In this document: piece after piece, positions 2,663 through 48,279 of the stretch | Position numbering within the stretch: position 1 is the first letter of the stretch | Layout of the letters: each line of letters starts with the position of its first letter | Translations under genes and position numbers: made by a program | Notes under the pieces: generated by a model | Told to the model about the DNA's origin: nothing | Database searches by the model: none | The model's input: the letters and a program-made list of their open reading frames with translations, nothing else | Sequence record: OQ417974.1 | Strand: one strand, 5' to 3' | Length of the DNA: 49,665 nucleotides | Source of the DNA: Mycobacterium phage prophiCCUG48898T-1

Positions 2663-3552
2663 CAACTACCGCCGAAATCCCCACCGCTGACGGCCTATAC
2701 AGCGGTATTCCTGATGAGGTCTACCACGCTGACCGCACCAGCTTGTCGTCGTCGGGTGCTCGTGCACTGCTGGCGCCGTCCTCGCCCGAGATCTTCCACT
2801 ACCAGCAGGGGCAACCGCCAGAACCCAAGCCGCAATACGACTTCGGGCACGTTGCCCACAAGTTCGTGCTGGGCGAAGGCGCCGATATCTGCGAGCTAGA
2901 TCCGGCCGTTCACGGGCTGAACAAGGATGGCTCCCCCGCCAAGTCGCCCACCGCCACCGCGATGTGGCAGGCAGCGGCCGAGGAAGCGCGCAAGGCCGGT
3001 CAGATCCCGATGCACATCGCCGAGGTGGCCAAGGCCAAAGCGATGGCAGCCAGGGTGCACGAGCACCCGCTCGCCGGGCCGCTACTAGCCGACGGGACAC
3101 CGGAGCTGTCCGGGTACTGGCACGACCGGGAGACGGGCGTGCGCCTGCGGTTCCGGCCCGACTGGCTGCCCAACCCCGGCCGGGGACGGCTGATCGTCGT
3201 GGACTACAAGACAAGCTCCAGCGCCTACCCGGGCCACTTCGCCAAGTCCGCAGCCGAATACGGCTACCACCAGCAGGCGCCGTGGTATCTGGACGGCCTG
3301 GCCGCGTGCGAGATCGCCGACGACGCCGCGTTCCTGTTCGTCGTCCAGTCCAAAACGGCGCCCTACCCGATCACCGTGGTCGAGCTCAAGCCCGAAGACA
3401 TCGACCTCGGCCGGCGCCGCAACCGCAAGGCCATCGACCTGTACGCCCAATGCGTCGCCGATGACCACTGGCCCGGCTACGGCGACCACGTGCACTCGGT
3501 ATCGCTCCCCAGTTACGCCACCTACCAGCAAGAAGGAGAACTCGATCAGTGA
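2659..3552 (+). CDS. RecB-family PD-(D/E)XK exonuclease (RecE/Cas4-like nuclease domain, lacking the Cas4 Cys cluster)
   Basis: Motifs LIVVDYKTSSS (D-x-K) and YGYHQQAPWY (QxxxY) are typical of RecB-family nucleases. ATG at 2659 lies within track ORF 2431..3552. Confidence 0.7.
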   Translation: MTTTAEIPTADGLYSGIPDEVYHADRTSLSSSGARALLAPSSPEIFHYQQGQPPEPKPQYDFGHVAHKFVLGEGADICELDPAVHGLNKDGSPAKSPTATAMWQAAAEEARKAGQIPMHIAEVAKAKAMAARVHEHPLAGPLLADGTPELSGYWHDRETGVRLRFRPDWLPNPGRGRLIVVDYKTSSSAYPGHFAKSAAEYGYHQQAPWYLDGLAACEIADDAAFLFVVQSKTAPYPITVVELKPEDIDLGRRRNRKAIDLYAQCVADDHWPGYGDHVHSVSLPSYATYQQEGELDQ

Positions 3553-4670
3553 CCGTCACCCCCTACCAGCCCATCTCACCCGCACCGCGCACAACGGTCA
3601 GCCAAGCCACCTCAGTCGAACAGTCGCGCGCCGTCGCCGAGGTCCAATCCGCCGTCATCGTGGCCCAGCAGATCCCGCGTGACATGCAGCGGGCCGAAGC
3701 GGAGATGCGCGATACGTGCAATCGATCCGCGATGGCGAAACAGGCCTTCTACCAAGTGCCGAACCGAGGCAACGGCGCATCGGTGCACCTCATGCGCGAA
3801 CTCGCGCGAGTCTGGGGCAACGTGCAGTACGGCGTCAACGAGCTGCACCGCGACGACTCCCGGGGCGAGTCGGAGGTTCAGGCGTGGGCGTGGGATGTGC
3901 AGACCAACACCCGCTCTACGCGCACCTTCATCGTCCCTCATGCCCGCATGTCAAAGGGGCGCCGCCAAGAACTCACCGACCTTGGTGACATCACGAACAA
4001 CAACAACAATGCGGGCGCTCGCGCTGTCCGTGAGTGCATCAACGCCATCTTGCCCAAGTGGTTTACCGAAGCGGCACAGGACATCTGCAAGGCCACGCTG
4101 GAGAACGGCGAGGGCGTGCCCTTGCCCAAGCGCATCGAGGACATGATCGCCGGATTCCGTGCCATCGGCGTCTCCCAGGCGCAATTGGAGACCAAGATCG
4201 GCAAGAAGCGCGGCGCCTGGGATGCGGGCGATGTCGCGCAGATGGGCATCACCTATACCTCGATCACCCGCGACGGCTACGACAAAGCCGAGATGTTCCC
4301 GCCGCTCGCGGGAGTGACAACCGACGAGATCAAGGCCAAGGCCCCGGACAAACCGAAGGCCGAAGCGACACCAGCTCCCGAGAAGGCACCAAGCCCGGAG
4401 AAGGTCGAGGAAGCGCCCGAGGCCAACCCCGCTGAATACAACTCGCGCGGTGAGTTTCTGGCCACCAAAAAGACCATCGGCACCATCCGCGGGCTGCTCG
4501 GCAACGCGGGCTATTCCCTGCGCGGCGATGCGGCCACCGTCAAGACGCTCACCTATCTGGCCACTGTCGTCGGCCGCGAAATCGCCGATGTCAACGACCT
4601 ATCCGAAGCCGAGGCCGAGGTAGTGACCGACGTTCTGAACCAACCCACCACAACAGAAGGGAATGAATAA
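3549..4670 (+). CDS. Putative single-strand annealing protein (RecT-like), with a Pro/Lys/Ala/Glu-rich linker and a C-terminal domain
   Basis: It lies directly downstream of the PD-(D/E)XK exonuclease and is translationally coupled to it, as in RecET-like modules. It has the low-complexity linker APDKPKAEATPAPEKAPSPEKVEEAPEA. The family call is an inference. Confidence 0.5.
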   Translation: MTVTPYQPISPAPRTTVSQATSVEQSRAVAEVQSAVIVAQQIPRDMQRAEAEMRDTCNRSAMAKQAFYQVPNRGNGASVHLMRELARVWGNVQYGVNELHRDDSRGESEVQAWAWDVQTNTRSTRTFIVPHARMSKGRRQELTDLGDITNNNNNAGARAVRECINAILPKWFTEAAQDICKATLENGEGVPLPKRIEDMIAGFRAIGVSQAQLETKIGKKRGAWDAGDVAQMGITYTSITRDGYDKAEMFPPLAGVTTDEIKAKAPDKPKAEATPAPEKAPSPEKVEEAPEANPAEYNSRGEFLATKKTIGTIRGLLGNAGYSLRGDAATVKTLTYLATVVGREIADVNDLSEAEAEVVTDVLNQPTTTEGNE

Positions 4671-4672
4671 CC

Positions 4673-5014
4673 ATGTCCGACAACGACACCGAGAAGAAAG
4701 AGGAAGGCACCGAACTCGCGCCAGGTGACATCACCGAGTTCATCGTCGTATTCACTCAGCTCAACAAGGGCCGCACTCAGCTCGAAGCAACCAAGGCTCT
4801 GCACGAGGTCGTCGAGGCCGCGATGGCCACCGGTAAGAAGACCGGCACCGTCACGATCAAGATCAAGGTCGAGCCGCTGGAGTCCGGCGCAGTCAGCCTC
4901 GTGCCCGATGTCACCAGCAACCCTGCCAAGGACCCGGCCGGAACGATTTTCTTCGCCGACGGCGAGGGCGGCCTATCCCGCGACAACGCCAGCATGCACT
5001 ACGGCCTCAGGTAA
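4673..5014 (+). CDS. Hypothetical protein (113 aa)
   Basis: ORF with a good AAGGGAATGAATAACCATG spacing context. Confidence 0.5.
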   Translation: MSDNDTEKKEEGTELAPGDITEFIVVFTQLNKGRTQLEATKALHEVVEAAMATGKKTGTVTIKIKVEPLESGAVSLVPDVTSNPAKDPAGTIFFADGEGGLSRDNASMHYGLR

Positions 5015-5041
5015 CCCAACCCACCCGAAGGAGTAACACCC

Positions 5042-5878
5042 ATGTCCGACAACACCATTGCACTACCAAAGCACGACGCCGATCTGATCGACGAGCCCGA
5101 CGCCGACACCCCGCTCTACCTCGTCACCGCCAACGGCGAGAACGGCCTCCAGACCGAGGTTGTCGACGTACGGGGCAAGGTACCCGCCGCGTTCCCGCCG
5201 CGCGCACCTGAGCGCCGAACCGTCACCGACACCGCCTCATTCCTTGCCGAGGTCACCCGCCGGCCACTACTCCAAGGCCTCTCGACCGTCTGGGGGAACC
5301 GCGACAAGGGGCAGGTCAGCGTCATCTACAACGAACTCGGCACGGACGCGACGGCGGACTACACCCGCCGAAACGATCTGCTCACTCTTCAGTTCGTCGC
5401 GGACCCGGACTGGGCGACCCTATTTAAGGCCGCTGACGGCGAGTACCACGGCCAGGAGAAGTTTGGCGATTTAATCGAGCAGGCCGGACACCTGATCACC
5501 AGCCATCCGGCCGCCGAGGTCGTTGAAATCGTCGACAGCATCCAGTCATCCAGCAATGGGTCATTCAAGTCTCAGATCAAGCGCGACACCGGAAGTCAGC
5601 ACCTCACCTACAGCGAGGAAGTCACCGCATCGGCGGGCACCGCCACCCGGCCACTTGAAGTACCGCGAGAGATCACGCTCGCTGCGCGGCCGTTCGAGGA
5701 CTACCCGCTGATCGAGGTGACGTGCTGGCTGCGCCTGCGCGTGAGCCAGGGGCAGCTATTCCTGGGGTTGTTCCCCAAGCCATATGAGCACTTGGTGCGC
5801 GATGCCTGGACGCAGAAGACCGGCGAGCTGTCCGAAGCACTCGGGGTGCCCGTCTACGCCGCCAACCTCGGCAAGTAG
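5042..5878 (+). CDS. Hypothetical protein (278 aa); possibly DUF2303/YfdQ-like, a family often found beside phage recT genes
   Basis: RBS GAAGGAG precedes the ATG. Its position within the recombination module supports the call. The family assignment is not verified. Confidence 0.5.
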   Translation: MSDNTIALPKHDADLIDEPDADTPLYLVTANGENGLQTEVVDVRGKVPAAFPPRAPERRTVTDTASFLAEVTRRPLLQGLSTVWGNRDKGQVSVIYNELGTDATADYTRRNDLLTLQFVADPDWATLFKAADGEYHGQEKFGDLIEQAGHLITSHPAAEVVEIVDSIQSSSNGSFKSQIKRDTGSQHLTYSEEVTASAGTATRPLEVPREITLAARPFEDYPLIEVTCWLRLRVSQGQLFLGLFPKPYEHLVRDAWTQKTGELSEALGVPVYAANLGK

Positions 5879-36987: not shown

Positions 36988-37827
36988 ATGGCTTGGCCTA
37001 TCGTCGATTTCAACGGCGCACGCTACTACCAGGGACAGGGCTACACCCTGGTCCCGGTCGACGGCACCGGGGTGGCGCACGTGCTGCTGCGCGAAGACGG
37101 CGGAATCATGGGAGGGGTGTCCGGGGTCGAGCAGGGCCCGCCCGGAAAGCACGCCGAGTTCGACGAGAAGATCGACCTGACACCACTGGCCCCCGAAGAC
37201 GCGACACCCGATTCAGCATTTTTCGAACTCATTACTCCCCCAACGGATACCACGCCCGGCAGGTGGAAGATGCACCTGGCGCTACACACCGGCAAGACCG
37301 GTAAAGACGGCGCGACGCGCTGGAATCCGCTGGACCTGTCGGCCAATCCCAAGGCGGGGTGGATTCCGGCCGTCAAAACCGACCTACTCGGTTTTGAGCT
37401 TGTGCCACAAAAGGTTGCCGAGGTGTTCTACCCGGGCGAAATCAAGAACATCGGTACGGGCAACGCGAACGGGACTATGGCCGCGATCGACATCCCTCCC
37501 CGCCCGTGGCCTCGGCGCATCCGCGCACAAGGCCAAACGGTCGTTACCGGCGAAGCGGCCGACGTGCGCGTGAATCTGCTGGCCCGGCTCAACGGCGAGG
37601 CCAACGGCAACATCGTGGGCCGCTGCGTGGGCATCGCCCAGACTGATCGGCTGGCGTTCTCACCGGGCAAGCCCATCGGCCCCGGCAGCACCACCGACGA
37701 CTACGACACCATCCCCGCTGGCACCTCGGCCACCGTGCACATCCGGTGCGAGCGCCAAACCGGCACATCGACGTACACAGCCACCGCCGCGATGTCGCAC
37801 TTCAACATCGAGGCCTGGCCGCTGTGA
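36988..37827 (+). CDS. Minor tail protein (279 aa)
   Basis: Synteny; RBS GGAGG. Confidence 0.5.
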   Translation: MAWPIVDFNGARYYQGQGYTLVPVDGTGVAHVLLREDGGIMGGVSGVEQGPPGKHAEFDEKIDLTPLAPEDATPDSAFFELITPPTDTTPGRWKMHLALHTGKTGKDGATRWNPLDLSANPKAGWIPAVKTDLLGFELVPQKVAEVFYPGEIKNIGTGNANGTMAAIDIPPRPWPRRIRAQGQTVVTGEAADVRVNLLARLNGEANGNIVGRCVGIAQTDRLAFSPGKPIGPGSTTDDYDTIPAGTSATVHIRCERQTGTSTYTATAAMSHFNIEAWPL

Positions 37828-40271
37828 GCGACAACCTGCCCGAGATCCCCGATTGGGCAAGAGATGTCCCCTCGGCCCCGGTACACCGCGAGCAGGGCGG
37901 CGGTCTCACGCGACCGTTCACAGCCCAACAGCTCCAGGAGTTCGGCAAGGGGTTCGTTGAGCAGTTCCTCGGTCGCGTGGTGCTCGCGGTCATGGGGCAC
38001 CTCATTCCCGGCGTGGGTTCGTTTGATCAGCTGCGCGAGTGGGCCAAAGACAAACCTGGTCTCGGCGATCTGGTCGAGCTGCTGACCGGGATCGAGGACG
38101 GCGACGAAAATGATTTAGGGACATGGGCGCTCGGTATCCGCAACGCCCTGGCTGGCATCGATCTGGCCCACCCCGAATCGATCCTGACTGCTATCGCCAA
38201 GGTCGCGGGCCAGTTCCTCAAGGGCGTGATACCGGCGTCGTGGGTGGCTGATGTGGCCCACGACCTACTGGGCGGCGCTGGCGGATTCACCGACCCGAAG
38301 ATGGTCGAGGACAACCCGTACTGGCGATTCGACGCCGCCCAAAACGGGCACCTGTCGGGCAAGTCGATCTACCTCAACGCCGATGGCCAGCTGCATGCGA
38401 TCAGCATCAAAGACCCGTTCAACGTAGCTGCCGGCCAGGCGGTGGATATCTCCGCATCGGCGATGTGGCAAGGAGTCTCGGCTGCAGTGGGGTCCAATCC
38501 GATCCGGTTGTGCATCACCCCGTTTGCCCCCGATGGCACCAAGCTCCCCGATATCGTCATCAAGAAAATTCAGCCCGTGGCCGCGGATTCGTCCTGGATA
38601 CGTGCCAGCTTGAGCGGCTCGTGGACGGTGCCGACCGACGGATCGGTCAAGTCCGCGACAGTGACCCTGGTGGTCACCGAGGGCGCCACCGCCGGCCGCA
38701 TCCACTTCTCCAACGTCACCTCGGTCATGTCGAACCTCGGCCCGCTACTGGGCAAGTGGAGATCGTTCTTTGACACCCTGGGCGGCAAAGCCAATTCGGA
38801 CATCGCCGATTTCGAGCAGCGATTCGCCGCGATCACCGCCGACGGCAAGATCACCGCCGAGGAAATCATCGGGCTACTCGGGTTGGGCAATATCCCGAAG
38901 CTGCCCCCGGCCAAGGTGCACAGCCCGATCGGCAGCACCGACATCGGAGAAGACCTCAAGGACACGTGGAACAACTTCTGGAACGCGGTATTTGGGGACG
39001 GATCTAGTGGCAGGGGTCCTGTCGATGTATCCACCGCGACCGCTGCACTCAAGAAAAAGGCCGATGACGCGTACGCAGCCGCGGTGTACGCCACCGACGT
39101 TGTGAACCTGCCACGACTGACCCCCCGCTGGATGTCCACAGGCATCAACGACGATGTGTCGTTCCCCATCATCAATGCACAGTCGACATTCGTACCGGCC
39201 GACCAAAAGCTGGTGTTCATCCCCATCACGCCGGGTGTCGAGCGCACGTATCGAACCGTGAAATTCGCCATCACCGGCAATGGCATGACGCAGTGCTACG
39301 TGGGCGTGTACCGGATCAATGAGTCGCTGCAAATTCAGAAGGCCGTCGACCTCGGGAACGTCAAGGCACGGCTATCGGGCACCAGCCGCGTGCAAGCTCT
39401 GACAATTCCGTCGCCGGGATTGACGGTACCCAAGGGCCACACCGCCTTCATCGGTGTGCTGCAGGTCGGCAACCCGCAGGGCCTCTACACCACACCGGCC
39501 ATGCCGACCGTGCTGGAAGTCGTGCAGAACATCCCCCTGTTTTTCACCCAGGACGGCGGCACCGGCTACACCTCCCTGCCCACCCTGGTGGGCGGGCACG
39601 TGGAATTCACGCCGGTATGGGGCGCCCTGGGCGAGTCGACCAACTTGGCAGATCAATGGACCGAGTACTCACCCACCGGGTCGAACCTGCCCCTGTCCGT
39701 CTACGACATCCCCAGCGCCAGCACCGTGCTGTACCTGGCGGGCTGCGGTGGCGGTGGTGGGGGCGGCGGCGGTGACGGCGGCTGGAACAAGCCCGGCGAG
39801 GGTGGGGGCGGCGGTTCCTGGAACTCGCTACGGCTGGAGCGCGGCGTCGACATCCCGGTGTCCGTCACTCAGATCACGGTGCAGTCCGAGCGTGTGGGTT
39901 CACCCACAGGTATTGGCGGCGAGCCCGGCAGCAAGGAGACCGACGGCAAGCCGGGCCACGACATCGTGTTCCGCAACGGCACCGACAACAGCGAAATTCT
40001 GCGCTGCGCTGGTGGCCGACTGGGGCGCCTGGCCTATGGCAGCTTCTACAACCGCGACTCGGTGGGCTACGGCCCCGGCGATCTTGGGTTCTCCGCGCGC
40101 CTGTTCAAGGGCGGGCAGAACACCCCGCCCAGCGCTTCGGTGGGTGCGGCCAACGGTGCCCCGGGCAACGGGCCCGGTGGCGGCGGCGCGGGCGGTGCCG
40201 GTGGTACCGGGGGCAGCGCCGGTACCGGCGGCTGGGGGGCTGCGGGGTACGCCGCGATCAAGGCGGTCTGA
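37824..40271 (+). CDS. Glycine-rich minor tail protein
   Basis: C-terminal region CGGGGGGGGGDGGWNKPGEGGGGGSWN ... GPGGGGAGGAGGTGGSAGTGGWGAAGY. Confidence 0.6.
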   Translation: MSDNLPEIPDWARDVPSAPVHREQGGGLTRPFTAQQLQEFGKGFVEQFLGRVVLAVMGHLIPGVGSFDQLREWAKDKPGLGDLVELLTGIEDGDENDLGTWALGIRNALAGIDLAHPESILTAIAKVAGQFLKGVIPASWVADVAHDLLGGAGGFTDPKMVEDNPYWRFDAAQNGHLSGKSIYLNADGQLHAISIKDPFNVAAGQAVDISASAMWQGVSAAVGSNPIRLCITPFAPDGTKLPDIVIKKIQPVAADSSWIRASLSGSWTVPTDGSVKSATVTLVVTEGATAGRIHFSNVTSVMSNLGPLLGKWRSFFDTLGGKANSDIADFEQRFAAITADGKITAEEIIGLLGLGNIPKLPPAKVHSPIGSTDIGEDLKDTWNNFWNAVFGDGSSGRGPVDVSTATAALKKKADDAYAAAVYATDVVNLPRLTPRWMSTGINDDVSFPIINAQSTFVPADQKLVFIPITPGVERTYRTVKFAITGNGMTQCYVGVYRINESLQIQKAVDLGNVKARLSGTSRVQALTIPSPGLTVPKGHTAFIGVLQVGNPQGLYTTPAMPTVLEVVQNIPLFFTQDGGTGYTSLPTLVGGHVEFTPVWGALGESTNLADQWTEYSPTGSNLPLSVYDIPSASTVLYLAGCGGGGGGGGGDGGWNKPGEGGGGGSWNSLRLERGVDIPVSVTQITVQSERVGSPTGIGGEPGSKETDGKPGHDIVFRNGTDNSEILRCAGGRLGRLAYGSFYNRDSVGYGPGDLGFSARLFKGGQNTPPSASVGAANGAPGNGPGGGGAGGAGGTGGSAGTGGWGAAGYAAIKAV

Positions 40272-41326
40272 TGCCCTGGTCCACCAATCCGTCTGCGCCC
40301 TCGGGGCAATCGAGTAGGTGGTCGACCAAGCCCGATCCGCCCTCGCCGCCATCCATGGGCAAGTGGGTCTGGATGCCACGGGTCACTGTCGCGGACTCGG
40401 CAGTCGGCGCCGATCTGGCCCATCTGCTGCGGGTCGCCCACACGGGCATCGATCAGGGTGTTAGCGCAGACCTCGCCGTCGCAGGAGTGAGCGTGGGCGC
40501 CAGTGATGCCGGCCGGGGCGCCGACCTGGCGCGGGCGAAGCTGCGCGTGGCTGCACGAGACGCCGGGATAGCTGCCGACACGGCCCGCCCCGGTGTGCGC
40601 GCCACCGATTCGGCCGTGGCCGCCGAGATGGCGCAGATGCTCCCCCGCCTGGCCGCCGTCGGTGCCGCCACGGCCGCCGATATCGCGGTGCTGTCGCGGG
40701 TTCGGCTTCCCTCCAGCGCCAGTCAAGCCATCGGCGCCGATACCGCCACCGCCCGGTTCAGTCCGCAACCGGCAGCGCTGACCGCGATCACCGCAGTCGG
40801 CACGACCGTGGTCCCGATCCCGGTGTGGTGCCGCTATCTCGATCTGGCGCTGGTCGGCGCTGGCGGCGGCGGTGCGAGCTCGGGCACGTTCTACCTACTC
40901 GGCGGCTTCCCCGGCAGCCCGGGAACCTGGGCCACCACCACTTTGGAGCGCGGCATCCACATTCCCTGGACCACAACAACCCTGACATTCGTCATCGGCG
41001 CAGGCGGCGCCAAGGGTAGCGGCGGTTTCGCCGGAACCGCGGGCGGCCCAGGTGCGGCAACCACCGCTATCGGCGACGGATGGGCGGGCCTGTCCGCTGC
41101 TGGCGGCGCTGGTGGCCCGCAGCACCCCACCGGCATCAACGCCAACGACGGCCCCGGCCCGGGCGACAAGACCTACAACGGCGTGACCTACCCGGGCGGT
41201 GCCACGCAAACCTCCGATGGCGCAACGGGCTACGCGCCCGGCGGTGCCGGTGCCGGCGGTGCCAACTTCGGCGGCCCCGGCGGCGTCGGCGGCGCAGGCG
41301 GTGCCTGGTGCCGCGCATACCAGTAA
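40271..41326 (+). CDS. Glycine-rich minor tail protein 2
   Basis: Repeated GGxGG tracts and AD-rich heptad-like repeats (ADLA...ADLA...). Confidence 0.55.
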   Translation: MPWSTNPSAPSGQSSRWSTKPDPPSPPSMGKWVWMPRVTVADSAVGADLAHLLRVAHTGIDQGVSADLAVAGVSVGASDAGRGADLARAKLRVAARDAGIAADTARPGVRATDSAVAAEMAQMLPRLAAVGAATAADIAVLSRVRLPSSASQAIGADTATARFSPQPAALTAITAVGTTVVPIPVWCRYLDLALVGAGGGGASSGTFYLLGGFPGSPGTWATTTLERGIHIPWTTTTLTFVIGAGGAKGSGGFAGTAGGPGAATTAIGDGWAGLSAAGGAGGPQHPTGINANDGPGPGDKTYNGVTYPGGATQTSDGATGYAPGGAGAGGANFGGPGGVGGAGGAWCRAYQ

Positions 41327-41823: not shown

Positions 41824-42186
41824 ATGTCCGAATACCAGGGCGCGCACCGACGCGCCTGCTGCGCCGCAATCACCGCACTCGGCAACCGAATCGGCCTATT
41901 CGCGGGTTCCACCCGGGTAGGCACCGCCTACGCCGACACCACCTGGGCCACCCCAGTCGATGTCACCGAATCCGGCATCGACAAGGCATCGTCCACCGGC
42001 TCGCTGGTGACCATCTCGGTACCTGGCGGCACCGTGGCCAACGGCACGGTGATCAACCGGTACGGCGTGTTCAACGGCGCGACCCTGCTGCGCACCGAGG
42101 CACTACCGGTCTCCCTGACCGTCAACGACGGATCGCAGCCGTTACAAGTCGATGTCACACCAACATTCAAGTTCTGGGGCGTGTAG
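41824..42186 (+). CDS. Hypothetical protein (120 aa)
   Basis: ORF with ATG 41824. Confidence 0.45.
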   Translation: MSEYQGAHRRACCAAITALGNRIGLFAGSTRVGTAYADTTWATPVDVTESGIDKASSTGSLVTISVPGGTVANGTVINRYGVFNGATLLRTEALPVSLTVNDGSQPLQVDVTPTFKFWGV

Positions 42187-42188
42187 TC

Positions 42189-42332
42189 ATGGCCCGCCAG
42201 CTGCTCAAACACTCGGCCGTCTACGCCGCACTTGCCGCCATCTCATTCCGGCTGGGCTGGTGGGCATCCGACCGCCTGTCCTCCTACGCCCAAGAGATCG
42301 ACCCCCGCATCGAAAGGAAGTACACCCGATGA
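42189..42332 (+). CDS. Possible small hydrophobic protein (47 aa) coupled to lysA by an ATGA overlap
   Basis: MARQLLKHSAVYAALAAISFRLGWWASDRL... It is not in the ORF track because it is under 60 aa. Weak RBS. Confidence 0.25.
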   Translation: MARQLLKHSAVYAALAAISFRLGWWASDRLSSYAQEIDPRIERKYTR

Positions 42333-42976
42333 GTTTCCGCACCGCCTACGGCAATACGACCTCCGAGAACGGTTGGCGTATGTGCAACCGGGACGAATGC
42401 GACATCGTACGCATCGACGAGCTGTACCTCGTGGACACCGCACCGCTGCGCAAGGGCGCCCCGCTGACCATCCTGGGCGCCTGGCTGTACTGGTATGACC
42501 GCAACGTCGAAGAGATCACCTCGCCTGTGTGGGGCTGGTCGGCCACAAACGATGTCGCCAACAGTAATCACCTGGCAGGCACCGCTGTTGACGTGATGGC
42601 ACCCAAGTACCCCTGGCAGCGGTACACGATGGATGCCGCCACGCAGGCCAAGGTCCGCAAGGGCCTGGCGCTGTTCGAGGGCTCGGTGTTCTGGGGCCGC
42701 GACTGGTCGCGCCCCGACGAGATGCACTACCAGATGGCCTGGCCCGAGGGCGACAAGCGCAATGACGCGTTCGCCGCCAAGCTGCGCGCCGGATACCTCG
42801 GCATCTACGCGCCCGCGCAGCCCCCGGCGGTCGATCCTATTGTGCTACACCAGCAATTCGTCCAAGAAGCTCCCGACCGCAAGCTACTTGAATACATCGC
42901 CGAACAACTCGGGCCAGGACATCCTGACTGGGCATCGAAGGGTATGACGCTGCGCGACAAGGTGTGGTCCAAGTGA
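42329..42976 (+). CDS. lysA: Endolysin LysA, peptidase M15 (VanY/L-Ala-D-Glu peptidase-like) domain
   Basis: Zinc-binding motifs SNHLAGTAVD (HxxxxxxD) and DEMHYQ. ATG 42329 lies within track ORF 42152..42976. Confidence 0.7.
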   Translation: MSFRTAYGNTTSENGWRMCNRDECDIVRIDELYLVDTAPLRKGAPLTILGAWLYWYDRNVEEITSPVWGWSATNDVANSNHLAGTAVDVMAPKYPWQRYTMDAATQAKVRKGLALFEGSVFWGRDWSRPDEMHYQMAWPEGDKRNDAFAAKLRAGYLGIYAPAQPPAVDPIVLHQQFVQEAPDRKLLEYIAEQLGPGHPDWASKGMTLRDKVWSK

Positions 42977-44913: not shown

Positions 44914-45342
44914 CTAATCCAGCACGCGGGCCCGGCTTTGCGTTGTGCCGTTTCTGTCCACCACCGCATCGCAGGTGTAGGGACGCATCCCCGTGTAACC
45001 ACCAAACGCGTTCTTGGCGTTGACATTGCCCGTCACCGTAAAGTAAATATCACCGCGGTCGGGCGAGTAGTCCAACTCGGGATCGCGACCACCTCCATGC
45101 GCCACGCCTTCACGGGCCACCTCATCGGCGAACTTCGCACTCTCAGGGTCACGCATGCGCTTCATGAGAGCGGACTGGCATGTCTCGATCGCGTACTTTT
45201 GCCTCACTTCAACGCTCACACCAACGTTTCCGGATTGGCCCGACAGCCCTATTGCGCACGCCGCCATGAACGCCAGCAGCCCGACAAATACCCCCAGACA
45301 CACCCACAACGCTTTCGCCGGGGTGCCCATCTCTCTCGCCAT
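44914..45342 (-). CDS. Membrane-anchored or lipoprotein-like protein (142 aa); last gene of the leftward toxin operon
   Basis: N-terminal ALWVCLGVFVGLLAFMAACAIG is a signal/anchor sequence. Confidence 0.5.
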   Translation of the reverse strand: MAREMGTPAKALWVCLGVFVGLLAFMAACAIGLSGQSGNVGVSVEVRQKYAIETCQSALMKRMRDPESAKFADEVAREGVAHGGGRDPELDYSPDRGDIYFTVTGNVNAKNAFGGYTGMRPYTCDAVVDRNGTTQSRARVLD

Positions 45343-45416
45343 GGACGGCAGATTACAAGATCACGCCCAGGTCAGAAGTGGTTACAGGAGTGCTCACATC
45401 GCGGCGGGCATGCCCC

Positions 45417-45917
45417 CTACCCGGCGTCGGCGAATTCGGGTTGCTCGCGCAAGTGCCAGCCCGGCGCAACGTCCAGGTGGTTGTAGTAGTGCTGGAACAG
45501 CTCGATAGCTTCAGCGGCGGATAGGACCTCTGACGGTCGTACCAGGTACTCACTGTCGCCGTTGTAGACCGTCTCTGACTGCTCGGATTCATTTGCCGCA
45601 GAAGGCCGTCCGATGGTGTACATACGCCGAACGCCATCGGACTCTTTCCGGCGGATTTCGACGGTCAGGCGCTCGGCGGTGGCCCCGCAAGTCTGAATCC
45701 ACTCATGAGGGTATGGGAACTCGTCGTACTCAGTGCCATCGGGGACCTTATAGATCGAGAACGCCACGTCTGCGACACCATCCCGATCTTCGCCGATCGA
45801 GTTGATATTTATTTCGATCTGCCGGTGCGCCTTCCCTGGCTCAGCGCCCATCCACATAATGAAATCTTTGTCGGTAGTGTATGTATGCATCTGAAAACCA
45901 TTGCGCTCAAGACTCAT
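45417..45917 (-). CDS. Candidate immunity protein for the upstream toxin
   Basis: Its ATG overlaps the toxin stop (ATGA). 166-aa cytoplasmic acidic protein. Confidence 0.5.
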   Translation of the reverse strand: MSLERNGFQMHTYTTDKDFIMWMGAEPGKAHRQIEININSIGEDRDGVADVAFSIYKVPDGTEYDEFPYPHEWIQTCGATAERLTVEIRRKESDGVRRMYTIGRPSAANESEQSETVYNGDSEYLVRPSEVLSAAEAIELFQHYYNHLDVAPGWHLREQPEFADAG

Positions 45918-47566
45918 TCGCCCGCCACCTTAATTACCTCTACCTCAGTGACTTTCACCGTCTCGACTTCCCCGCTCCTGTTTGTGATCGTAACGTAGGC
46001 CGGATTCTCTGGAGTTACGGCCGAGTCGAACGCTCGCTGCTCTGCATTGCGTGTGGCATCACCGGATTTGACCTCAATACCTTTGTAAGTGCCGTCTGAC
46101 TTCTGCGCCAAACCATCGTAGTAGCGGCCATTCTCGACCCCATCGACCTTGGCCTTACGACGCTCAGTGCTCACCCATTCGTCCGGGTTAGCGCGCCGAT
46201 AACGATCGATACCCTCTGCCTCTGGTTGGCGACCGTATCCTCGGGCTGTGCCGCCTCGGCCTGTGAATGTGCCGATGGAATCGCGGTCGTCGCCACGGTT
46301 GATGCCCTCGCCGGGTCGTCCAGTCCGGGCCTCCATCACCGTCACGCCGTTGACCGCAGCCTCTTTCGAGAGGTCGAGGGCTGGCGGTATGGCGACGACC
46401 GCGCCACCAGCGAGTAAGCCCGCCCCGGCAACAGCGACAGGCGCCGCGACCGGTGTCGCGGCCCCACCGGTGAAGACCTCACCGACGCCCGCCGCAGCCA
46501 TCATGTCGTAGCCGACCGCCATCATGCCGACTCCAGCTGCCATCTGGATTGTCTGGCCGGGGTTGTCGATCATGGCCTGCCCCAAGGATGCAGTGGCGTT
46601 CACTACCGGGGCCACGGTGTTGTATATCTCGTTTCCGAAAAGCTCAACCTGCATCTGTACCAACGACTTTAGGGTGTCGATGACCATCGATGCGCCCTGG
46701 ATGATCGGCGCCAGCAGCAGCGCGAGCGACTGCACTTCCGACTTGAACTGGTTGACGATGTTGCGGATGTCGGCGGCGATTTTCTTTATTTCGTCGTCGT
46801 CTTCGCCGGTAATCCAGTCCACGACCTGTTTGGCACCGGTCAGCGGATTTACCAAGCGGGCCAACAGGTCCAGTATCGATGCGTGCGCCGTATCGATCTT
46901 GGCCGCGTAGTCGTTGAGCTTGGTGCCCATGGTGCTGCACATGCCGCCGACCTCGCCGACAGCACCGTCAATCGTCTTGAACGCGCTATCGATCTTGGGA
47001 CCTTCGGGGATCTGCTGGGCCTGCGCGGTTGCCTGCGCCCCCGCTAGTCCGGCCTGCTGAGCGGTGAATGCCGCACCGGCAGCCGTCCACGCGGCGCCAG
47101 CGGCGCGCAGCTTCGCCGAATCACCATTGGGCCAAATCATTCCGATGAACGGCTCCACCAGGAACCAACCGGGTGGGTCGCCAACATCGCTACCCACCGC
47201 AGACGGTGGGGTCCCGGCCTTCACCGCGGGAGTGGGTGAGGCGGCGGGCAGTGGGTCGCCGCCCTTGCCGTCGATGTTGGATGCCACCTCGGCACGCGAA
47301 TAGTTGGTCGCCGAGGCCCGGATGCCGTCAGCGGCCCGCCCGGCACCGTTGGACACGTCCACCATCGCCTCAAGGAGTTCCTTGGCTGACGAGTCATACG
47401 ATCGCGCGAACACGATCCCGGCGGGGTCATCCCCACCCATACCGGCCGAACTCGACAGCGCCGACTGCAATGCCGACAGCGCAGAGCCCCACCCGCCCAC
47501 CGAGCTGGAGACCGTTCTACCGGCGCCATCGAGGGCAACCGGGTCGACATGAATCGGGGGTGCCAT
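45914..47566 (-). CDS. Polymorphic toxin. N-terminal WXG100-like ESX/T7SS secretion domain (GGWGS and YSRAE), Gly/Ala-rich hydrophobic linker, C-terminal PD-(D/E)xK-like domain. Start ATG 47566; the track extension to 47725 is spurious.
   Basis: N-terminal DGAGRTVSSSVGGWGSALSALQ...SATNYSRAEVAS matches WxG and YxxxE. C-terminal YYDGL...GIEVKSGD...RNAEQRAFD matches D...ExK...Q. It sits directly downstream of an Esx-like pair. Confidence 0.65.
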   Translation of the reverse strand: MAPPIHVDPVALDGAGRTVSSSVGGWGSALSALQSALSSSAGMGGDDPAGIVFARSYDSSAKELLEAMVDVSNGAGRAADGIRASATNYSRAEVASNIDGKGGDPLPAASPTPAVKAGTPPSAVGSDVGDPPGWFLVEPFIGMIWPNGDSAKLRAAGAAWTAAGAAFTAQQAGLAGAQATAQAQQIPEGPKIDSAFKTIDGAVGEVGGMCSTMGTKLNDYAAKIDTAHASILDLLARLVNPLTGAKQVVDWITGEDDDEIKKIAADIRNIVNQFKSEVQSLALLLAPIIQGASMVIDTLKSLVQMQVELFGNEIYNTVAPVVNATASLGQAMIDNPGQTIQMAAGVGMMAVGYDMMAAAGVGEVFTGGAATPVAAPVAVAGAGLLAGGAVVAIPPALDLSKEAAVNGVTVMEARTGRPGEGINRGDDRDSIGTFTGRGGTARGYGRQPEAEGIDRYRRANPDEWVSTERRKAKVDGVENGRYYDGLAQKSDGTYKGIEVKSGDATRNAEQRAFDSAVTPENPAYVTITNRSGEVETVKVTEVEVIKVAGE

Positions 47567-47570
47567 CGCG

Positions 47571-47861
47571 CTATGCCCAGTTCTGCATGTTCTTGGCAGC
47601 GGCGCCTGTGTAATTGCCGTGCGCGGCGTGGCTCGCGCTACGTAGGCCCTTGAGCGCTTCGCGCATCTGCTCGGCGCCCTTGGCCCACTTCTCGTGCGCC
47701 TGCGTGTGGGCCGTGGCAGCTTCACCTGTGAAGGTGGCGTGCAGGTTGTGAACCTCGGTGTCCATGGCCGCTATCGACGCCTCGGCTCGCTGCTCAACCT
47801 CTGCCATGCGTTCGATGATCCGCATGAGCTCGTCGGGCACAACGCCGAATTCACCTGACAT
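47571..47861 (-). CDS. Esx-like small helical protein (WXG100-family partner, EsxB-like)
   Basis: 96 aa, MSGEFGVVPDELMRIIERMAEVEQRAEASIAAMDTEVHNLHATFTGEAATAHTQAHEKWAKGAEQM. Its stop lies 4 nt upstream of the toxin start. Confidence 0.55.
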   Translation of the reverse strand: MSGEFGVVPDELMRIIERMAEVEQRAEASIAAMDTEVHNLHATFTGEAATAHTQAHEKWAKGAEQMREALKGLRSASHAAHGNYTGAAAKNMQNWA

Positions 47862-47870
47862 CTTCTCCCC

Positions 47871-48182
47871 CTACATTCCGTCAGCGGCGTTGACGTTGGC
47901 GGCGGTGGCCGCATCCTGGCCCACGAACGCATCCCCGGTGCTCGCCAACAAGCTGCCCATCTGCGCAAGGCCCTGGTGTACCAGCTTGGCGCCCTCGTAC
48001 CACTGGAACCACCGCGTGGTGAACGCGCTCGCCGACCCACCAGACCAACCGGAGCCGACAAACCGCGACACCTCGGCGTCGAGGGCATCCAGCTCCGTCG
48101 CCAAACCGCCTGCGGTCGCGGTGACCAATCGCGAAACCCGCTGCAACTCTTCTGGCGAAACCCCGAGGACCCCTCCACTCAT
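47871..48182 (-). CDS. WXG100 protein (EsxA/ESAT-6-like); start ATG 48182
   Basis: MSGGVLGVSPEELQRVSRLV...FVGSGWSGGSASAFTTRWFQW; W-S-G in the central turn; about 100 aa. Confidence 0.65.
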   Translation of the reverse strand: MSGGVLGVSPEELQRVSRLVTATAGGLATELDALDAEVSRFVGSGWSGGSASAFTTRWFQWYEGAKLVHQGLAQMGSLLASTGDAFVGQDAATAANVNAADGM

Positions 48183-48279
48183 TGCCGGATGGTATCGCCG
48201 CCGAGTTTGCCACCGCAATAGGAGTGCGAAGCGATACCCATCCGACCTGCACGTTTCGGCGGCATGCGCAGGGTTATTG

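Follow-up and report, generated by a model that had tools for sequence, protein, structure and literature searches.

PEST3 cassettes, a type of prophage-encoded ESX-secreted polymorphic toxin system, were defined by Abad et al. (2023; PMC10654092) who took prophiGD17-1 as their representative; its toxin has an N-terminal domain that can be superimposed on CpnT. In that study (PMC10654092), a prophiGD17-1 cassette lacking its immunity gene (pLA15) failed to transform M. smegmatis while the complete cassette (pLA6) did transform it, and no recognisable toxin domain, fold, or activity was given for the toxin. The locus analysed here lies in Mycobacterium phage prophiCCUG48898T-1 (sequence record OQ417974.1), of which a stretch of 49,665 nucleotides, hereafter called the window, was analysed. 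Its minus-strand region 45417-48218 is best explained as a PEST3-type system with two WXG100 helpers, a 550-residue toxin, and an immunity protein, and both the toxicity and its relief by the immunity gene are established, from the literature, for the close allele of prophiGD17-1. The cassette as such is already known and annotated: prophiGD51-1, a prophage of M. abscessus GD51 that belongs to cluster MabC and is 99.9% identical to the 3-kb stretch around the toxin domain, was given the toxin-immunity configuration 't' by Dedrick et al. (2021). The new question is the identity of the toxin's C-terminal domain, for which a restriction-endonuclease (REase) fold is not reported in either of these two prophage papers. 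I propose, with a probability of about 0.8, that the last ~130 residues of the toxin are a minimal PD-(D/E)xK nuclease domain that cuts nucleic acid and is neutralised by the partner encoded directly downstream.

Other described systems share parts of this arrangement. The CpnT-EsxE/EsxF-IFT operon of M. tuberculosis likewise has two WXG100 genes upstream, followed by the CpnT-type N-terminal domain and then an antitoxin gene, but CpnT ends in the NAD+ glycohydrolase TNT, whereas a predicted REase-fold domain and an unrelated immunity protein are found here. Tox-REase-1 to -10 are, like the present domain, REase-fold C-terminal modules on type VII secretion system (T7SS, WXG), RHS, or HINT carriers in Actinobacteria with an immunity gene downstream (PMC3482391). 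PoNe is a PD-(D/E)xK polymorphic toxin domain found on carriers of the type V, VI, and VII secretion systems, including WXG100 proteins, and has Mg-dependent DNase activity that is lost on mutating the conserved Asp (Jana et al., 2019; PMC6688995).

Results

Motif, extent, and conservation of the toxin domain

Residues are numbered according to the annotated 550-residue toxin, which is the number within the isolated domain plus 411. An earlier reading of this DNA from the sequence alone had placed a REase-fold signature, made up of YYDGL, GIEVKSGD, and RNAEQRAFD, in the last about 160 residues of the toxin at 45914-46420, and all three elements are present on the minus strand with the 14-residue spacing from D to E that it had described. 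The minus-strand translation runs from GYGRQPE449AEGIDRY to GRYYD484GLAQKSDGTYKGIE498VK500SGDATRNAEQ510RAFD514, with codons at 46115-46117 for D484, 46073-46075 for E498, 46067-46069 for K500, and 46037-46039 for Q510, while D514 belongs to the same motif as Q510 and the upstream acidic residue E449 (46220-46222) sits in the first helix.

A lone D...ExK pattern is frequent by chance. Conservation was counted over 194 members of the toxin-domain family, with denominators that vary per position, and the most conserved positions of the family were E449 (160/168 members), R481 (189/191), D484 (188/191), E498 (191/193, the remaining two having D), K500 (189/193), Q510 (189/191), and D514 (187/191). 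Because these residues are kept across members that are only 30-60% and typically 30-50% identical, the D...ExK...Q motif is real and not a coincidental pattern.

The range 45914-46420 does contain the motif domain, but its first ~35 codons (46310-46420) fall into a Gly/Ala-rich linker, and in place of about 160 residues the conserved module comprises ~130 (residues ~420-550, 45917-46309), of which ~104 (residues 447-550, 45917-46228) form a confidently folded core. The module begins with a conserved pre-core segment, GEGINRGDDRDSIGTFTGRGG... (residues 420-446, 46229-46309, minus strand), recognised in two alignments (A1 and A3), in which R428 (156/157 members) and G432 (159/159) are near-invariant within RGDDRDsiGtF and which was modelled only at low confidence, with a predicted local distance difference test score (pLDDT) of 54-70. 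In the two HINT-containing relatives P0010 and P0026, the corresponding 'GRD..G.F' begins directly after the HINT C-terminus. Candidate roles for this segment are substrate binding, immunity contact, or translocation.

Predicted fold and database searches

AlphaFold2 modelling with a 103-sequence alignment gave a mean pLDDT of 86.8, with blocks from domain residue 41 onwards at 93-98. In domain numbering, the model consists of helices (H) and strands (E) H37-48, E60-63, E74-77, E83-90, H97-105, E112-117, and E123-136, so that the predicted nuclease core follows the order alpha1-beta1-beta2-beta3-alpha2-beta4-beta5, in which a single strand is added to the alpha-beta-beta-beta-alpha-beta core of the REase fold. 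E449 (E38 of the domain) is placed in helix 1, D484 (D73) immediately before strand 2, E498 and K500 (E87 and K89) in strand 3, and Q510 (Q99) in helix 2, all of them being 95-99% conserved. The domain is therefore predicted to have what defines the superfamily, namely the core topology, an Asp at the start of strand 2, (D/E)xK in strand 3, and an acidic residue in helix 1, together with structural similarity to established PD-(D/E)xK members. The better Foldseek matches, in the PDB and among viral structures, came mostly from this superfamily (the AdnA nuclease domain, Cas4 SSO0001, VRR-NUC, YqaJ-like, and endonuclease I-like), none of them reaching E 0.001, and VRR-NUC, FAN1, Bax1, Hjc, and NucS were the top structural neighbours. 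The sequence-only reading had staked its claim on structure prediction not yielding a different fold, and both the model and most of the better structural matches point to the REase fold. The VRR-NUC and FAN1 nuclease domains nevertheless share only 13-19% sequence identity with the toxin domain, and VRR-NUC proteins are non-secreted DNA-repair or phage enzymes without an immunity partner.

Weak sequence signals point in the same direction. When the 103 domains were scanned singly against Pfam at a lax threshold, sub-threshold matches were obtained to VRR_NUC (10 members), YqaJ (7), and NOV_C (4), and further ones to DUF4143, Endonuc_Holl, and Tox-REase-3. The REase fold is supported because motif conservation, predicted structure, and these sequence signals are three independent lines in agreement; the proposed signature was thereby borne out, with nuclease activity as a prediction.

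Searches of curated collections left the toxin domain unassigned, as the sequence-only reading had suspected. It was unmatched in Pfam and NCBIfam when the full protein was searched, in Pfam at E<=10 when the domain was searched alone, in PHROGs and PADLOC, and by Pfam in 76 full-length members and, from precomputed Pfam annotation, in 59 further relatives. A profile search of PDB sequences gave insignificant matches only, and no link to the family was found in the toxin survey of Danov et al. One of the insignificant PDB matches, RhsA of P. protegens (7q97, E 0.56), a predicted DNase whose D...FEVKNGSG...Q aligns with the motif, was kept as a lead only, and the aligned RhsA fragment itself matches no Pfam family. 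Pfam DUF1391 was matched sub-threshold by 20 of the 103 toxin domains (best E 2.5e-4). A 139-residue M. abscessus protein (P0001) that holds a 73%-identical fragment of the domain bears the NCBI name 'putative NAD(+)--arginine ADP-ribosyltransferase Mav domain protein', which looks like a misannotation given the predicted REase fold.

The motif G445xxxE449, YYD484, E498xK500, Q510 resembles that tabulated for Tox-REase-7 (GxxxE, IxD, ExK, Q) as well as those for Tox-REase-1 (E, D, ExK, Q) and Tox-REase-6 (E, D, ExK, Q, Y) (PMC3482391). The Pfam models of Tox-REase-2, -3, -5, -7, and -9 did not match the window domain at E<=10 or the 76 full-length members at E<=0.01, and the sole Tox-REase match among the 103 domains was to Tox-REase-3 with E 0.028. 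The verified Tox-REase-5 toxin domain of the sister prophage prophi57-1 was found to be unrelated at the level of profiles (hhalign probability 0.5%), and a comparison of hidden Markov models gave no relation between its immunity protein and the immunity family described here. Membership in PoNe/PoNi was also rejected: the 'Yx3ExK' element of PoNe is present as Y494-KGI-E498-V-K500, but the remaining part of that motif (Kx3GE...GIDx2Y) is not matched, and the immunity homologs have no match to DUF1910 or DUF1911, both of which PoNi immunity proteins carry. From these sequence comparisons, which for Tox-REase-1, -4, -6, -8, and -10 were made by tabulated motif strings only, the toxin domain is filed as a putative new sequence family in the known class of REase-fold polymorphic toxins.

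Family spread and carrier modules

Searching with the C-terminal 143 residues in a word-indexed search found only 11 relatives, and a profile of those relatives, run against 1.84 billion representatives, matched 361 proteins at E<=1e-3 and 182 at E<=1e-10. Of the 150 matches listed, which are between 69 and 2158 residues long, nearly all have the domain at their C-terminal end or close to it. The N-terminal modules among the 76 full-length members were T7SS_signal (20), WXG100_2 (10), WXG100 (6), EspA_EspE (5), RHS (3), and PPE (3), and a HINT pre-toxin domain was present in the two members mentioned above. One C-terminal domain thus occurs on differing N-terminal trafficking or repeat modules, and an immunity gene that co-varies with it follows immediately downstream, which is the hallmark of polymorphic toxins.

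The family spans mycobacteria, other Actinomycetota, the mycobacteriophage Dori, and a Saccharibacteria genome. Dori gp88 (NC_023703.1; locus L002, 1592-3007, plus strand) combines a WXG-type N-terminus with the toxin domain (95 bits; its ExK reads IEAKT), and the neighbouring gp87 (L002, 3004-3516, minus strand), which is convergent with gp88 and overlaps it by 4 nucleotides, is related to the immunity protein (56 bits; identity 30%); such an opposite-strand immunity gene is unusual. The Dori system is without some PEST components according to Abad et al. (2023; PMC10654092). The Saccharibacteria metagenome-assembled genome (L022) encodes the toxin domain at 3407-4378 (36% identity) followed by an immunity homolog at 4397-4852 (50 bits), and Actinomyces oris also holds family members (P0184). 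This joint occurrence may reflect exchange between an epibiont and its actinobacterial host, or mis-binning of a contig.

The immunity partner

The 166-residue protein encoded at 45417-45917 (minus strand), which had been put forward as the immunity protein, is annotated as such in the near-identical prophiGD51-1 record. A homolog on the same strand and immediately downstream was detected by tblastn at 19 of 20 genome loci, drawn from Mycobacteriaceae, Segniliparus, Solirubrobacteraceae, Nocardioides, Gryllotalpicola, and Saccharibacteria, and a profile recovered the homolog at the remaining locus with 50 bits, making 20/20. Furthermore, the 63%-identical ortholog of prophiGD17-1 relieves toxicity (PMC10654092). 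The identity of the 166-residue protein as the cognate immunity protein is therefore supported, and it would presumably bind the toxin physically. The start of its gene overlaps the toxin stop in an ATGA at 45914-45917, and the protein was modelled as a compact alpha+beta fold with a pLDDT of 91.1. No match to the immunity family was found in Pfam (Imm models included) or the PDB, and the partner was also unmatched in library scans of NCBIfam, PHROGs, and PADLOC. Five loci carry tandem immunity genes, in two or three copies per single toxin gene (L003, 4423-6805; L006, L007, L009, and L010, about 4426-5580), and these resemble orphan or spare immunity genes lined up in an array.

Cassette layout and allelic divergence

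On the minus strand, the prophiGD51-1 annotation lists a tyrosine integrase, a helix-turn-helix protein, two WXG-motif proteins, the toxin ('polymorphic toxin protein with WXG motif'), the immunity protein ('polymorphic toxin immunity protein'), and a hypothetical protein, with the lysis cassette on the other side. In the window, the second WXG100 protein is encoded at 47871-48218 (minus; Pfam WXG100 E 5.6e-16, and annotation), which is the longest open reading frame (ORF), the near-identical record having a shorter gene of 276 nucleotides with the same stop. The toxin-proximal WXG100 (ESAT-6-like) protein, annotated as a WXG motif protein, lies at 47571-47861 (minus; Pfam WXG100 E 2.9e-11). 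The toxin gene follows with an ATG at 47566, codes down to 45917, and stops at 45914-45916, and a 603-residue ORF in a program-made list is the same toxin with an earlier GTG start. Its N-terminal secretion domain (46550-47566, minus) is WXG100-like and of the PEST3 or CpnT-like type, with Pfam WXG100_2 at residues 142-236 and, over the domain as a whole, 99% identity to prophiGD17-1 gp86, and is joined to the toxin module by a hydrophobic Gly/Ala-rich linker (46310-46549, minus; ~residues 340-419 of the translation) that is nearly identical to that of gp86. An integrase and an attP-containing repressor adjoin the cassette in the annotation of the near-identical record, so that two WXG100 genes, a toxin with a long N-terminal domain, an immunity gene, and an adjacent prophage attachment junction, as in PEST3 systems, are all present.

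The cassette has the same four-gene order as prophiGD17-1 gp85-gp88 (two WXG100 genes, toxin, immunity gene) with the same toxin and immunity families. DNA identity to prophiGD17-1 is 90-100%, mostly >=95%, from 48173 in the WXG genes to about 46270, and drops to 41-77% in the stretch that encodes the toxin core and the immunity protein. As proteins, the two toxins share 92% of their residues over the full length and ~99% over the first ~450, with nearly all differences located after residue ~452. The best explanation, judging from these alignments, would be that core and immunity gene vary in concert, forming a single diversifying module next to a constant secretion part. As the toxin cores are only about 60-75% and the immunity proteins 63% identical, the present cassette is a different allele from that of prophiGD17-1, and cross-immunity may not hold.

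Below the immunity gene, an ORF of 142 residues at 44914-45342 (minus) is hydrophobic at its N-terminus and was matched to PHROG 2320, a family of unknown function. Its 5' end (45300-45382) is 97.6% identical in MabC prophages with a different toxin cassette (prophi57-1 and others), and this resumption of the MabC match puts the left edge of the exchangeable module just below 45417. Further away, lysin A (42152-42976) has 648 nucleotides in the near-identical prophiGD51-1 record and 957 in prophi57-1 (L023, 1028-1984). Upstream of the lysis cassette, two large ORFs (37746-40271 and 40271-41326, both plus) end in glycine-rich tracts, the second corresponding to a 1056-nucleotide gene that the near-identical record lists as a minor tail protein.

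Discussion

If the toxin domain is a PD-(D/E)xK nuclease, other members of the superfamily suggest how its active site would be built. A divalent metal would be coordinated by E449, D484, and E498, the water that makes the attack would be activated or positioned by K500, and Q510 and D514, both in the next helix, would make the site complete. In whatever cytoplasm the domain arrives, it would cleave the phosphodiester bonds of nucleic acid, most probably DNA, while the translationally coupled 166-residue partner would bind and neutralise it in the producer. Several points weigh against this interpretation. The near-invariant R428 and G432 sit in the segment modelled at low confidence, and the model gives them no role. 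The predicted placement of the putative catalytic residues was read from the secondary-structure elements of the model. Catalysis, metal dependence, substrate, and binding by the immunity protein are what I infer for every family member, and since some PD-(D/E)xK toxins are tRNases, 'DNase' is a preference.

The strongest competing explanation, though clearly less probable, is that the same fold and immunity logic act on RNA, for example tRNA or rRNA, as the CdiA-CT tRNases of the PD-(D/E)xK fold do in Burkholderia. However, the complete acidic set (E, D, ExK) is of the hydrolytic DNase type, unlike the His/Tyr/Lys site that splicing endonucleases have, the structural neighbours listed above as the top ones act on DNA, and Zhang et al. 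(2012; PMC3482391) note the same for most of the fold's characterised members. DNA is the more likely substrate, because the nearest structural neighbours act on it, the site is of the hydrolytic type, and PoNe, the one family of REase-fold polymorphic toxins to have been tested, is a DNase.

It is very improbable that the REase fold has been kept without cleavage of nucleic acid and that the toxin kills by binding a target or by hydrolysing another phosphodiester. The invariant R428/G432 segment, having no explained role, would fit such an activity, but the catalytic constellation is near-invariant in the 194 members, as an active enzyme predicts, and the known REase-fold polymorphic toxins are all read as nucleases (PMC3482391), PoNe having been shown to be a DNase (PMC6688995). 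That D...ExK...Q is a chance resemblance in an unrelated fold with another activity, for which the silence of every curated profile and the insignificant matches to PDB sequences could be cited, is less probable still in view of the conservation described above.

A more far-reaching but tentative proposal, which I consider possible rather than probable, is that this is an undescribed pair of toxin and immunity families, separate from PoNe and from Tox-REase-1 to -10, whose toxin adds to the REase fold an invariant 'RD..G.F' element at the N-terminal end and a long beta-hairpin at the C-terminal end. Such a toxin might have an unusual substrate or specificity (a specific RNA, or structured DNA as for its VRR-NUC neighbours), and the closely related alleles of M. 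abscessus prophages might form separate immunity groups.

The system itself is of a known kind, and what is new is limited to a sequence family within a cassette that was already known and annotated. The assignment nevertheless provides a lethal toxin of a clinically relevant organism, so far without assigned activity, with a predicted fold and named putative catalytic residues, and it defines a family of >350 sequence clusters, together with its immunity partner, whose proteins are still listed as 'hypothetical' in current databases. Secreted toxin cassettes of this kind are common in M. abscessus prophages, and several of them have been shown to be expressed in lysogens, with a possible role in virulence, bacterial competition, or phage defence. 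Were it true that the M. abscessus prophage alleles are separate immunity groups, they would shape the competition between clinical strains.
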